Shown: positions 7,469 through 15,291 of the stretch, one piece after another
Position numbering within the stretch: position 1 is the first letter of the stretch
How the letters are laid out: each line of letters starts with the position of its first letter
Origin: Candidatus Saccharimonadota bacterium
GTDB taxonomy: Bacteria > Patescibacteriota > Gracilibacteria > BD1-5 > UBA6164
NCBI GenBank assembly: GCA_963677765.1
Contig: OY782392.1
Span: forward strand, 480,001 to 512,000
DNA: 32,000 nucleotides
Direction of reading: 5' to 3'
The notes under the pieces: model-generated
The model's database searches: none
What the model was told of the DNA's origin: nothing
Seen by the model: the letters and a program-made list of their open reading frames with translations, nothing else
Translations under genes and position numbers: made by a program

Positions 7469-7529
7469 AAGGGCTATATATAAACTATAACAATATATGC
7501 TAAGTTAATAGAAAATTACTTTAAACCCA

Positions 7530-10271
7530 ATGTCACCTAACTCTCAAACTGTACCAAATACTGGTTTAGTTACTTTTGGTAAATTTGATATAACTGCTGG
7601 TTCTGAAGATGCTGCTATCTCTTCTATTAAATTAGAAAGATCAGGATTATCTCAAAGATCAGATATATCTAGAGTTTACTTTGAACAAAACTCAAAAAGA
7701 ATTTCTTCTAGAGGTTCTGTAAATATCGATGATGAAGTTACTGTTTCATTTACTCCTGCTTTAGTTGTTAAAGCTGGTTCTACTGAAACTGTAGACTTAG
7801 TTGTTGAATTAAAAGCAGGTGCTACAGTTGGAGCTGAACACAGATTCTCAATAGTTGAAGTTGAATCTTCTACTGAAGTTGCTAACAACTTACCAGTTGT
7901 TACTAACACTATGAAATTAGGTTCTTATACTGTTCAAACTGTTACTTTTGATACAACTGACGCTGATTCTAATTATGAATTAAATGTTGGTGATTCAGAT
8001 TTAGTTATTGGTGAATTTGAATTATCTACTGTTGGAGAAAAAGATAACTTATTCAAATCAGTTACTTTCACTAATAATGGTGGTGCTGATATGGAATCAG
8101 TTTTTGCTAACATCGGATTATATAACGACGGTGTTGAAGTTTCTACTGAAGTAATTATCGAAGGAAGAGAAATTACTTTCATCGTTAATCACGAAATAGA
8201 AAATGGTAGAACTGAATTATATGAAATCAGAGCTGACTTAGTATCTACTGATAGAGAAGGTGATGATTTTGAATTAGAATTAAGAAATGAAACTGACTTA
8301 AACGTAGTTGAATTATCTACTAATTTTTCTGCTCCTATAGCAACTATTAAAGATGTTATGGAAGAATATTCTTTAGTTGGTGGTGAATTATTATTAACTA
8401 GAGATACAGAATATACTACTACTGATACTGTTTCAGCTTCTACTAATGATGTAGTATTATTAGCTGCTGAATTAAGAGTTGATGAAGCTATTACTATAGA
8501 AGACTTATCATTAGGATATGAAACTACAGTTGTTCCATTAAATGATCAATATACAGATTTAAAATTAGTAGTTGATGGTAGAACTATATCTACTTATACT
8601 CCTGCTACTACTGGTTTAGATAACGTTGTTACTAATACTGGTGTTATAGCTTTTGATGGTACTTTCTTAGTTGAAAATAATTCTTCTATAAAAGTATTAG
8701 GTAACTTAAAAAATAATGTTACTAACAATGCTACATTCTCATTAGATGCATTTGTTTTAGATGGATCTACTACTAATGATATGAGATACGTTTCTAATGA
8801 TGAAGAAGTTACTGAAATTTCTGGTTCAGTTCAAGCTGTTACTGTTACTGTTGCTTCTGCTACATTATTAACTACTAGAAACGACGGATTAAATTCTGAA
8901 ACTTTAGTTTCTGGTTCTAGAGATGTTGAATTATTTGGATTCTCATTAAGAGCTAATGATGTTTCTGATATTAAAGTTACTTCTTTAAAACCTACTGCTG
9001 CTTATACAGGTACTGGTTTTGATGTATCTAATGTTACTAATGTTAGATTATATGAAGGTACTACTTTAATTAAAACTGAAAATGATTTTGATTTTACTAG
9101 TTTAAATGTTGTTATACCTAAAAACGGTTCTAAATCATTTAGAATAGTTGCAGATTTTGATACTTCAGTTGTTGATGGATCTACTATTTCATTACAATTA
9201 AATAGTAATAATATCTCAGCTAGAAATATTGAATCTAATCAATTATTAACTTCAATTAATACTTTAAATTCTGTTACATTTGATTTCGCTGCTCAAGGTA
9301 CTTTATCTGTTACAGCTAATTCATCTTCTAGAGATTCTTCTATAGTTACTCCTTCTGATAGTGAAGTTGATGTATTTACATTTGACTTAGAAGCTAAAGA
9401 TGATGTATTAAAATTAACTGATTTATATGTAACTCAATCTGGAACTACTACTGCTGTAGCTTTAGGTACTGGTACATTAGATTTTGCTAATGCTGTTAGA
9501 TCTGCTTCTATTACTGTAGATGGTAGAACTATAGATGGTGCTGTTGTTTCAGCTGATACTATCTATTTCCCAATTGGTAATACTTCTCCAGTTGTATTAG
9601 AAAAAGATGAAATAGTTGAAGTTAAAGTTAACTTATCTTTCAATGATTCTGATACTAGAGCGTCTACTCCTTTCCAATTAAAATTAGGTACAGGTAATTA
9701 TGCTGGTGCTGTTAATGGTACTCATGAAGGTATGAGAGTTATTTCTGATTCTACTGGATTAGAAGTTGATGGTTATACTCCTTCTTTAGTATCTGATGAA
9801 CATATGTTATCTAGATCAAAAGTTACTGTTGCTGCTACAAGTTTTGCTGCTTCTGAAACTGATTTATATGAATTTAATGTAACTGCAGATTCTAATAGAA
9901 AAGTTACATTAACAGATATTAATTTGGATTTATGAGGTTCAGCTGATTTATCAGGTGCAACTATAACTGTATATAAAAATACTGAATCTTCTTCAAATAT
10001 AGCATTTGAATTAACTACTACAGGTTCTGTAGTTACTGTTGGTGATTTATCTAATAGAGAAATTTCTGCTGGAACTACTGTTAAATATATAGTTAAATTA
10101 AAAGATGTATCTAATGCTTATAATCTTGTTCAAGCTGGGCAATCAGCTTCTAGAGAAACTAGAATTGATTCATTATCATTCTTAACTGATGTTACAGGTG
10201 ATTCAGCTGTTGCTGTTGAAAACTATAATGTTGGTGTTCCTACAACTACTAGTTCATATACTTATGAATAA
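7530..10271 (+). CDS. 5'-truncated paralog of the SLH S-layer protein (913 codons from the first in-frame ATG); lacks signal peptide, SLH domains and acidic linker; possible silent cassette
   Basis: Homology to the intact gene starts at 7518 (ACT TTA AAC CCA ATG), with an in-frame TAG at 7509-7511 just upstream. The frame is open to TAA 10269-10271, with a single in-frame TGA (9936-9938). Roughly 75-80% aa identity to residues ~244-1155 of the intact gene (by eye), with mosaic conserved and variable blocks. Confidence 0.75.
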
Positions 10272-14581: not shown

Positions 14582-15291
14582 ACTTCAACATCAGTTCCAT
14601 AACTAGGAGTAACAACAACATCATCTTCTTCATTAGTGTTATTATCTTCAGAAGAAGTATCTTCGTCATCTAATAAACCTTCTAATAAGTCAGATAAGAT
14701 ATCGTCTTCTTCTTCTACAGAAGAAGTCATAGCAGCAGCACCAGCTTCAAATACGAAACCTCTAGTAGCAGGAGTATCGTAGTTAGTAAAGCTAGAAACT
14801 ACACCGTTCATAGCAGCAAAAGCAACTACTTGTTCTTGCCAAGAAGTACCTTTTGATTCGTCGTACATATATTCGTCTCCGAATGCAGCTTTAACCATCA
14901 TACCAACAGCTTCAGCTTTTGTAATGTTAGCTTCAGGTCTGAAGTTTTCATTAGCAGCAACTAAACCAGCATCTAATAAAGCTTCAACTGAAAAACAAGC
15001 CCAAGTATTTGGAGTTGTAGCAGAAACATCAGCAAAAGAATTATCACAAGTAGTTTTTTTATCAAGACCAGCAACACCTCTAGCAACAGCAGCGATTTCT
15101 TGTCTTAATACATTTTGATCTAAGTTGTATCCTGCAGGATCAGCTGAATGGTTGTTAATTATACCAGCAGCAGCTAATTCGTTAGCAGCATCAACTTCAG
15201 CAGTACTGTATGCAGATACTCCAGTAGAGAAAATCCCTGAAACAAGAGTAACTAAAGCAACAGTAGCAGTAGTTTTTCTAAATAAGTTCAT
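11824..15291 (-). CDS. S-layer / cell-surface protein with N-terminal signal peptide, SLH-like repeats, acidic linker and ~900-aa repetitive beta-rich body (1155 aa)
   Basis: ATG 15291-15289 and stop 11826-11824. The two listed ORFs (13258..15291 and 11824..12888) are the same frame, joined through a single TGA at 13258-13260, and I checked that 12889-13257 is open. Signal peptide MNLFRKTTATVALVTLVSGIFSTGVSA. SLH signature FADVSATTPNTWACFSVEALLDAGLVAANENFRPEANITKAEAVGMMVKAA, plus flanking partial SLH-like segments. Acidic linker EEEDDILSDLLEGLLDDEDTSSEDNNTNEEDD. The body has recurring ~130-aa blocks of the type S..DV.L..F.L.A..D.V.I..L. Confidence 0.9.

Follow-up and report, generated by a model that had tools for sequence, protein, structure and literature searches.

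The stretch of DNA that is analysed here, referred to as "the window", comprises 32,000 nucleotides (nt) of contig OY782392.1 (assembly GCA_963677765.1), from a Candidatus Saccharimonadota bacterium that is placed among the Gracilibacteria in GTDB; its subject is a locus that consists of a recombinase gene, a short non-coding spacer and two S-layer body cassettes in inverted orientation, one of which is joined to a promoter and a cell-surface anchor (Table 1). The original prediction for this DNA had described an expressed S-layer gene with an inverted, 5'-truncated paralogue and had interpreted the pair as cassettes for surface variation; the recombinase gene and the guide-bearing spacer (5864-7515) were not mentioned in it. 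In our view, the locus is probably a programmed switch that inverts S-layer DNA, most likely RNA-guided, and that is operated by a domesticated, Piv-like recombinase of the IS110 family.

Table 1. Features of the S-layer locus, in positions of the window; S and F denote the two candidate recombination sites, and a slash marks the anchor/body junction.
Feature	Position	Strand	Remarks
IS110-family DEDD recombinase gene (453 aa), putative invertase	5864..7225	+	1.36 kb; directly upstream of the silent cassette, with a 290-nt spacer between them
Non-coding spacer with two guide units and a 3' hairpin	7226..7515	+	position and architecture kept 3' of every homologous recombinase
Unit 1, target-binding-loop-like	7270..7314	+	5' arm TGTTGAAGT (7275-7283); hairpin (7285-7298); 3' arm AAGTAATTT (7301-7309)
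Unit 2, donor-binding-loop-like	7366..7412	+	5' arm ATAGAAAAT (7371-7379); hairpin (7381-7396); 3' arm AGTAACTT (7400-7407)
Conserved 10-bp hairpin, followed by GGGTAAGGG	7441..7468	+	about 45 nt before the silent junction
Silent-side site S	7508..7528	+	ATAGAAAA-TT-ACTTTAAACCC; TAG (7509-7511) inside the left half-site
Predicted invertible segment (cassette A, p436, cassette B)	7518..14580	.	predicted from S and F and from the inverted orientation in L003
Silent body-only S-layer cassette A	7518..10271	+	913 codons from ATG 7530; without signal peptide, SLH domain and linker
Terminator palindrome 3' of cassette A	10290..10323	+	34 nt, identical to 11776-11809 (minus strand)
p436, gene of a 436-aa secreted protein	10411..11721	+	between the cassettes, within the predicted invertible segment; no Pfam family
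Terminator palindrome 3' of cassette B	11776..11809	-	
Body cassette B	11824..14580	-	now joined to the expression module; blastn, ORFs, identity comparison
Expressed-side site F	14570..14593	-	GATGTTGAAG-TT-ACTTTAAACCC, encoding ..DVEV/TLNP..; short form GATGTTGAAG-TT-ACTTTAAACC
Fixed module for expression (residues 1-237), with start codon, signal peptide, SLH anchor and acidic linker	14581..15291	-	Pfam SLH

The window is poor in G+C (19-34% across 1-kb windows) and contains 30 open reading frames (ORFs) of at least 150 codons when TAA and TAG are the sole stops, versus five under the standard code. In the code-4 translations of the recombinase homologues, a tryptophan that derives from TGA is aligned with the glycine that an NCBI Gracilibacteria protein has in its GxDIAK motif, and this match of TGA to a conserved glycine supports the reading of TGA as glycine, i.e. 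genetic code 25. A tRNA scan of the window found none.

The minus-strand ORF 11824-15291 has the composition that had been attributed to it before: its 1155 residues form a signal-peptide-like N-terminus, an SLH domain, an acidic linker and a long body of about 900 residues. Pfam matches the SLH domain once (residues 86-128, E=1e-4, 22.6 bits against a cut-off of 20.8), and the homologues of the protein, which have PF00395, are named SLH-domain proteins of Candidatus Gracilibacteria; we refer to the gene product as a putative SLH-anchored S-layer protein.

Cassette A corresponds to the body alone: the first 237 residues of the expressed protein are missing from it, as is any homology upstream of the junction. 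Its ORF opens at 7512, directly 3' of an in-frame TAG (7509-7511), has its first ATG at 7530 and remains open as far as 10271, i.e. over the 913 codons counted in the original prediction, while the other two frames of the same stretch are open for at most 44-49 codons; the in-frame TAG upstream of the homology had also been noticed, at a distance of 9 nt that is corrected here to 5-7 nt. By blastn, positions 7513-9761 align with 14585-12319 (84% identity over 2285 nt), and the C-terminal part of the two cassettes, about 500 nt, is divergent. Past the junction, cassettes A and B differ at four of the first 120 nt, exactly as stated earlier, and the 30 nt upstream of it match at 9 positions; since the latter is the random level, the homology boundary at 7516 (TT/ACTTTAAACCC) is abrupt. 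Amino-acid identity drops along the body (85, 80, 71, 63 and 28%), the strong divergence claimed for the last ~120 residues is borne out, and the claim of a near-identical 3' flank and terminator agrees with the 97% identity that we find over 61 nt (10269-10329 vs 11830-11770), with the palindrome inside. The two ends that had been seen as bracketing a variable body are both present; the 3' end is a shared terminator that inversion would not need.

The coding potential of cassette A appears to be kept. Random substitutions in it would yield a stop codon in about 3-5% of cases; cassette A differs from cassette B at 566 of the 2694 aligned positions and yet contains neither a stop nor a frameshift. 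The ratio dN/dS (NG86), whose calculation along the pair had been proposed earlier, is 0.88 for A vs B and exceeds 1 towards the C-terminus; for the silent cassette of the related locus L001 vs the full-length gene L139, it is 0.36.

Directly upstream of the silent cassette lies the recombinase gene, whose product is matched by DEDD_Tnp_IS110 (PF01548, E=3.2e-16) and Transposase_20 (PF02371, E=4.7e-11), both above the Pfam cut-offs, and over its full length by the NCBIfam model NF033542, "IS110 family RNA-guided transposase" (E=1.7e-32), with a score of 112.9 bits that is below the cut-off of 140; the putative recombinase is, by these matches, a divergent member of the IS110 family. Residues D38, E95, D139, D142 and S366, the last within a G--P----SG motif, are invariant in 12 homologues, and the catalytic motifs align with IEATGTY, KTDTVDA and PRRYESG of IS621; the SG of the G--P----SG motif is needed for inversion by Piv according to the paper from which the definition of the motif is taken (PMC11187229). 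A profile search of the PDB with the recombinase gave no match at E<=0.01; at E<=10, the IS621 and ISCro4 transposases are on top, with weak scores.

The recombinase is rare. Among 5.8e9 proteins, about 12 close homologues were found (40-69% identity), and the next relatives have at most 29% identity; each close homologue occurs on one to three contigs, Gracilibacteria-like, and always at this type of locus. Neither a left insertion sequence (IS) end nor a 5' gene or target fragment was found upstream of the recombinase in any locus examined, where dsbA or other genes are located instead, and, in the window and on the contigs searched, the putative invertase gene does not behave as a mobile insertion sequence. 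A scan of genome contigs with peptide patterns that were derived from the recombinase alignment, and that included Gly/Trp positions encoded by TGA, returned only unrelated IS110 genes.

The two candidate recombination sites, S at the start of the silent cassette and F at the anchor/body junction of the expressed gene, are mutually inverted and share a TT core and the right half-site; S can also be written as AATAGAAAA-TT-ACTTTAAACC (7507-7527), and its distance from the end of the recombinase gene is 290 nt. The composite TGTTGAAGTTACTT occurs once in the window. At the protein level, 43 full-length homologues share the motif [VL]EV/[TSA]L[NS]P at their anchor/body boundary, 21 of them with VEV and 22 with LEV. 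Sites of the proposed system would follow [GT]TTGAAGTTA[CG]TTTA or TTTAGAAGTTA.

The spacer between the recombinase gene and S contains two units, each of which consists of a hairpin between two arms, and the arms correspond to the two sites. In unit 1, the 5' arm has exactly the sequence of the 9 nt at the left of the expressed junction (14590-14582, minus strand); in the 3' arm, AAGTAA pairs with TTACTT, i.e. with the core and the right half-site, and TTT pairs with the AAA of S, not with the AAG of F. In unit 2, the 5' arm is identical to 7508-7516, directly at the left of the silent junction, and the 3' arm (AGTAA followed by CTT) pairs with AAGTTACT, i.e. with the core and the G-containing left flank of F (AAG). 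The four guide-site matches in the window have lengths of 9, 9, 9 and 8 nt.

This arrangement can be compared with the rules that have been published for bridge RNAs: in IS1111-type elements, the RNA is encoded downstream of the recombinase, the left guide has the sequence of the top strand of the left flank, and the right guide is complementary to the core and the right flank (PMC11208160, PMC11208158); two or three handshake bases that follow the right guide form pairs with the other substrate's left flank and are required for strand exchange (PMC11208158). The predicted spacer units match these rules in both arms, in the core and in the handshake.

The same units are found in the related loci, which we refer to by handles of our own (L001, L003 and so on). 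The alignment of the units comprises 19 units from 8 loci; the clade of the window has two units per spacer, and L005, L006 and L133 have three. The inner hairpin is paired at 99.2%, with compensatory changes in six of its seven pairs, a result that none of 500 shuffles reaches, and slid registers are paired at only 33-48%. A covariance model of the unit finds two or three copies per spacer, all of them on the strand of the recombinase, and no other match in 437 kb, which also include the rest of the window and, as negative controls, 24 unrelated loci with a loose primary-sequence pattern. A degenerate unit pattern had at least 120 chance matches in metagenome contigs, and among the matches listed none encodes the recombinase or an S-layer body; a tighter pattern had no match in viral contigs. 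A stretch within the spacer (7293-7341, repeats I12 and I20) had been suspected of being a 3' remnant of dsbA; this candidate was rejected, as what is seen there is the 3' arm of unit 1, which other loci keep as such.

Guides and sites change together. The 5' arm of the donor-type unit tracks the silent flank of its own locus (AAAAT, AAAAA, GAAATT, GACATT, GAGATT, TAAAGATT), and the right guides contain AAGTAA or AACTAA in agreement with ACT or AGT at the site. When eight guides are assigned to eight sites, none of the 40320 permutations is better than the cognate assignment, and the only one that ties swaps two loci with identical guides. The handshake is followed by 17 of the 19 units: target-type units end in TAAT, which pairs with the donor A-TTA, and donor-type units end in TAAC, which pairs with the target G-TTA; deviations are the TCAT/TCAC variants of L135 and unit 2 of L001, which ends in AAAC. 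The three-unit loci carry two target left guides, TGTTGAAGT and TTTAGAAGT, that predict VEV/ and LEV/ junctions, respectively, and both junctions exist among the homologues.

The spacers of the three-unit loci are longer (730-850 nt; L005 11420-12150, L006 6757-7610, L133 8513-9340) and contain two target-type units and one donor-type unit, which suggests that a switch among three cassettes may operate there; integrase, VapE-like or ParE-like genes are found in their neighbourhood, and their partner full-length genes are not located within the 10 kb that were retrieved. The 10-bp hairpin that follows the units is also present at the same place in L003, L001, L006, L136 and L147, with differing stem sequences; its score as an intrinsic terminator is for the minus strand, where TTCTTCT follows the stem, and not for the strand of the putative RNA, and it might stop antisense transcription that leaves the cassette.

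The order recombinase-spacer-silent cassette is conserved in about ten loci from eight lineages, with co-variation of guide and site. In all loci with downstream DNA (L001/L002, L003, L005, L006/L007, L133, L135 and L142), a spacer of 290-850 nt and then a body-only cassette come after the recombinase, on its strand, and the homology of the cassette begins at or near residue 1 of the body; the contigs of L136 and L147 stop within a few dozen bases of the junction and have the same spacer and site. The genes upstream, which encode a bPH-domain protein, Era and a DsbA-like protein, are the same in the window, L003 and L001/L142.

The original prediction had also held that the silent copy is maintained rather than decaying, a claim that the relatives strengthen. 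Each of the silent cassettes of L003, L001, L005, L006, L133 and L142 forms an open frame, with lengths of 904-1128 codons. An ATG is located near the silent junction in the window (7530), L003 and L001; no start codon occurs before residue 121 or 211 in the cassettes of L005 and L133, and L136 and L147 have no methionine at the junction. Body-only silent copies, conserved, open and often start-less, are thus present in at least six divergent lineages, and the fact that they are fully open, though not expressible in place, argues that they are maintained by selection.

Alternative arrangements in related genomes, which had been proposed as a check of surface variation, do occur. In the comparison of the window with L003 (GCA_041694155.1), the flanks are colinear and the segment 10289-11830, with the p436 gene and both terminators, aligns in inverted orientation with L003 16603-15039; the inversion of this central segment places the window and L003 in opposite states of the predicted switch. 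L001 and L142 represent the same species in two samples; their identity is 97-100% across recombinase and spacer and 85-100% over all flanking genes. Both have ...AATTAGTTTATCTCCAATGAGT in common; just after ...TTAGTTTATCTCCAATGAGT, identity falls to 52-74%, so that the unrelated cassettes begin exactly at the junction. The cassette of L142 is of a different body type, with about 35% amino-acid identity to those of the other retrieved bodies that it matches best, and the conserved 3' flank is also found behind these unrelated cassettes (L001, L142). The core of the interpretation as surface-variation cassettes, i.e. an expressed gene with a silent, inverted and maintained body cassette, is supported by the conserved silent copies, by the L003 inversion and by the L001/L142 exchange; the sap-like layout that had been part of it is not.

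Cassettes also diverge where the anchor does not. Compared with the window, the full-length homologues P0002 and P0003 are 98-100% identical in the anchor module, 60-82% in the body and about 26% in the last ~120 residues; overall, the anchor is conserved at 98-100% while bodies differ by 20-70% between strains. The DNA of L143 is a mosaic of blocks of ~96% and ~75% identity to body B, and gene conversion or homologous exchange is probably superimposed on inversion. The four pairings of A and B with the two L003 cassettes have similar identities, with 24-31% in the C-terminal ~120 residues, and do not single out orthologues.

On these grounds, a recombinase-mediated cassette switch of some form appears highly likely to us. 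In the mechanism that we propose, the promoter, the signal peptide, the SLH anchor and the acidic linker would stay fixed outside the invertible segment; a transcript of the spacer would guide the recombinase, S and F would be brought into synapsis, and strand exchange at or near the shared TT would invert 7518-14580, so that the anchor would run on in frame into body A, and body B would turn silent. The inverted isomer would have two junctions, ...GATGTTGAAGTT joined to cassette A (ACTTTAAACCCAATGTCACC) and ...AATAGAAAATT joined to cassette B (..TCAGC). Since the left half-sites would keep their positions and the right half-sites resemble each other, both sites would be regenerated and the switch would be reversible. 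We infer, from comparative sequence data, that the catalysis is due to this recombinase, that the crossover has this position and that switching occurs within a population. The most likely origin of the system would be an IS1111-like element that targeted the S-layer junction and later lost its left end and its mobility.

Several observations weigh against the guided switch, and some of them concern the guide element. The guide 9-mers are short and AT-rich, and ATAGAAAAT occurs nine times in the window, on both strands; one mismatch separates guide and current site in L136, L005 and L135, the 3' arm of unit 2 in L001/L142 does not fit the guide rule, and the left target guide lacks covariation, which is accounted for by its site being protein-coding and invariant. 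The covariation of the hairpin is all Watson-Crick, with zero G-U pairs, and so cannot tell RNA from DNA. RNAalifold, applied to unit 1 and its flanks, did not recover the outer stems that would turn the guide arms into internal loops; the single-sequence fold of the spacer has z = -1.9, with only the inner hairpins and the 3' hairpin being credible; and a scan of the window at the Rfam gathering thresholds found no family. A promoter consensus scan, uninformative at 25% GC, showed no enrichment over shuffles (66 found, 68 expected). Transcription of the spacer, and a role of the product as RNA, are likewise inferred by us. Other observations concern the switch itself: the two orientations are known from different genomes rather than from the reads of one population, the differences between the window and L003 and between L001 and L142 could in principle stem from homologous recombination, a search for a full-length protein with cassette A or with the L001 or L142 cassette at >90% identity found none, and the value of 0.88 for A vs B is not decisive, being compatible with diversifying selection or with relaxed constraint.

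The lack of G-U pairs, the missing outer stems and the hypothetical status of the spacer RNA would all be at home in a model where the same recombinase inverts the segment through protein-only recognition of its sites, the classical assumption for Piv, and where the hairpin units serve for DNA binding or as accessory sites, or are what is left of subterminal repeats; this model shares the recombinase, its synteny and the evidence of inversion with the guided switch. A protein-binding repeat, however, would have no reason to carry arms that copy two different left half-sites and co-vary with them, nor 3' arms whose cross-matching follows the handshake rule of IS621, nor to be restricted to the strand of the recombinase; moreover, bridge RNAs are predicted in 86-93% of IS110/IS1111 elements (PMC11208160, PMC11208158). 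We regard protein-only recognition as unlikely.

Somewhat less likely again is homologous recombination of the RecA type, or gene conversion, between the inverted paralogues, as in the sap or pilE/pilS systems, with an IS110 gene that is unrelated to the process. The 2.2 kb of inverted homology at 84%, the mosaic of 96% and 75% blocks between L143 and the window and the conserved terminator behind every cassette are what this process would use or leave, and gene conversion probably acts beside any inversion. It does not explain why a rare recombinase is syntenic and always accompanied by a silent cassette across lineages with only 45% recombinase identity, why the spacer encodes copies of both junction flanks, or why the homology boundary coincides with a short conserved site family-wide; in addition, the silent copy is without the conserved 5' region that defines the sap homologues.

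An active IS1111-like element that targets the linker/body junction, where an interrupted paralogue would have lost its 5' part and left its 3' part as the silent copy, is very unlikely in our judgement, although a system of this kind is the probable evolutionary origin of the locus; the left guide fits the S-layer junction in the exact manner of a target guide, and the RNA lies downstream of the recombinase, as in IS1111. Against present activity stand the upstream regions described above, with no 5' gene fragment or left IS end in any locus, the occurrence of each homologue on one to three contigs rather than in many copies, the same position of the element in three lineages, the donor right guide, which fits the start of the cassette and not a left IS end, and the cassettes themselves: interrupted fragments should decay, yet all are open for more than 900 codons.

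That the truncated copy is a decaying pseudogene, or is translated from the ATG at 7530 as a cytoplasmic protein, is hardly credible: the ATG is also found in L003 and L001 and the A-vs-B ratio of 0.88 would suit decay, but 566 differences have introduced no stop or frameshift, two relatives have no start for 121-211 codons and two others no junction methionine, and the arrangement is conserved over deep lineages.

Returning to the guided inversion switch, which we prefer, several features within and around the predicted segment deserve mention. No Pfam family was matched by p436; there is a weak similarity between its C-terminal part and the C-terminal domain found in the S-layer bodies (…NTGLPGDYYNYRY vs …NSGLPTDYRSVEYTK), it has a conserved promoter-like region of its own, and its position relative to the expressed gene follows the inversion state, so that in L003 it is located directly downstream of the expressed gene. 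The C-termini of the bodies (the last ~120 residues; 12060-12250 vs 9820-10271 in the window, and those of P0002, P0003, P0007 and P0008) are of discrete types that are common to several lineages; the type …SYN(V/I)LPTTA(S/T)T(Y/H)KY, for example, is found in P0002, P0003 and P0008 with 49-59% identity, and paralogues of the same genome are only 25-30% identical, which suggests that the C-terminal domain may be exchanged as a module, independently of inversion. The short-read contigs of L001, L133, L142 and L143-L146 end 27-71 nt past the stop codon of the cassette, at the shared terminator palindrome; as assemblers break at inverted repeats, such loci are expected to be systematically fragmented in metagenome assemblies.

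Upstream of the recombinase, two tandem genes encode DsbA-like thioredoxins (3288-4481 and 4592-5665, both on the minus strand) with C-terminal domains that are ~90% identical; relatives L003 and L001 have a single dsbA gene. The first of the tandem genes is chimeric: its promoter region and its first ~90 codons are an 82% identical inverted copy of the 5' end of p436 (10317-10703, plus strand; repeats I5 and I9), and recombination between the dsbA and p436 arms could invert 4565-10317, with the recombinase included. At the other side of the locus, a GT4 glycosyltransferase gene (15326-16381, minus strand) ends 34 nt before the start codon of the S-layer gene and is syntenic in L003 and L139; given this adjacency and synteny, the S-layer protein may carry glycans. 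Type IV pilus genes, of the PilC and PilB types, come next (16796-19277, minus strand).

The closest functional analogue of the proposed switch is Piv of Moraxella lacunata and Moraxella bovis, a DEDD recombinase related to IS110/IS492 that is encoded beside the invertible segment of the pilin genes tfpQ/tfpI. In Moraxella, the segment contains alternative 3' parts of the pilin gene in opposite orientations, and the promoter and the constant 5' part are located outside it. The serine motif G--P----SG is common to both systems; the cargo, in contrast, is here an S-layer body of ~900 residues instead of the C-terminus of a pilin, the host belongs to the candidate phyla radiation (CPR) and uses code 25, and a bridge-RNA-like guide element is evident; our literature search found no paper that describes a guide RNA for Piv. 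The recombinase also differs in length, with 453 aa compared to about 320 aa in the Piv/IS492/IS621 branch (PMC11187229).

Mechanistically, the closest known systems are the bridge-RNA (seekRNA) elements of the IS110/IS1111 group, such as IS621 and ISEc11, with which the locus shares the recombinase family, the location of the RNA region downstream of the recombinase, as in IS1111, the two hairpin guide modules with left and right guides and the cross-complementarity of the handshake. Unlike those elements, it is rare and syntenic, it has no left end, target duplication or circular junction, its recombinase scores below the NCBIfam cut-off, and some of its relatives have two target-type modules. 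Since donor and target are here two inverted chromosomal sites with a common right half, the predicted product is a reversible inversion and not an insertion.

The S-layer variation of Campylobacter fetus, whose sap layout the original prediction had recognised in this locus, resembles it in the presence of several S-layer cassettes, in the expression of one of them at a time, in DNA inversion as the switch, which for this locus is proposed, and in surface variation as the outcome. In the sap system, complete homologues with conserved 5' ends are swapped behind a promoter that lies on the invertible DNA, in a RecA-dependent manner. The layout differs here: the promoter and the anchor are fixed, the silent copy lacks the 5' region, the junction is short and specific, and a dedicated recombinase with matching guides is present. 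Shufflons and other multi-cassette invertases (Rci of R64, and the invertases of surface genes in Bacteroides and Mycoplasma) are similar in that alternative 3' segments are exchanged behind a constant 5' part, and the three-unit relatives may shuffle more than two cassettes, as shufflons do; the enzyme, however, is of the IS110 type, with DEDD residues and a serine nucleophile, instead of a tyrosine or serine invertase, and the choice of sites appears to reside in nucleic-acid guides rather than in repeats that a protein recognises.

Bridge RNAs are the targeting device of selfish IS110 elements and serve as an engineering tool; to our knowledge, inversion by a bridge RNA has been demonstrated only in engineered assays. 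Our full-text literature search returned no report of an S-layer inversion system in Gracilibacteria or of a natural bridge-RNA-guided inversion. We consider it on balance likely that a bridge recombinase and its guide RNA have been domesticated in Gracilibacteria as a reversible, RNA-addressed inversion switch that benefits the host, perhaps as a shufflon where two target modules are present. If so, cells would have co-opted RNA-guided recombination for phase or antigenic variation, outside transposition, and Piv and other DEDD invertases would merit re-examination for hidden guide RNAs. CPR bacteria are episymbionts or predators, whose surface probably mediates the contact with hosts and phages, and the switch would offer a first mechanistic handle on the variation of that surface; with a 1.36-kb gene and a 290-nt spacer, the system would also be compact, and its variants with two target loops hint at multiplexing.

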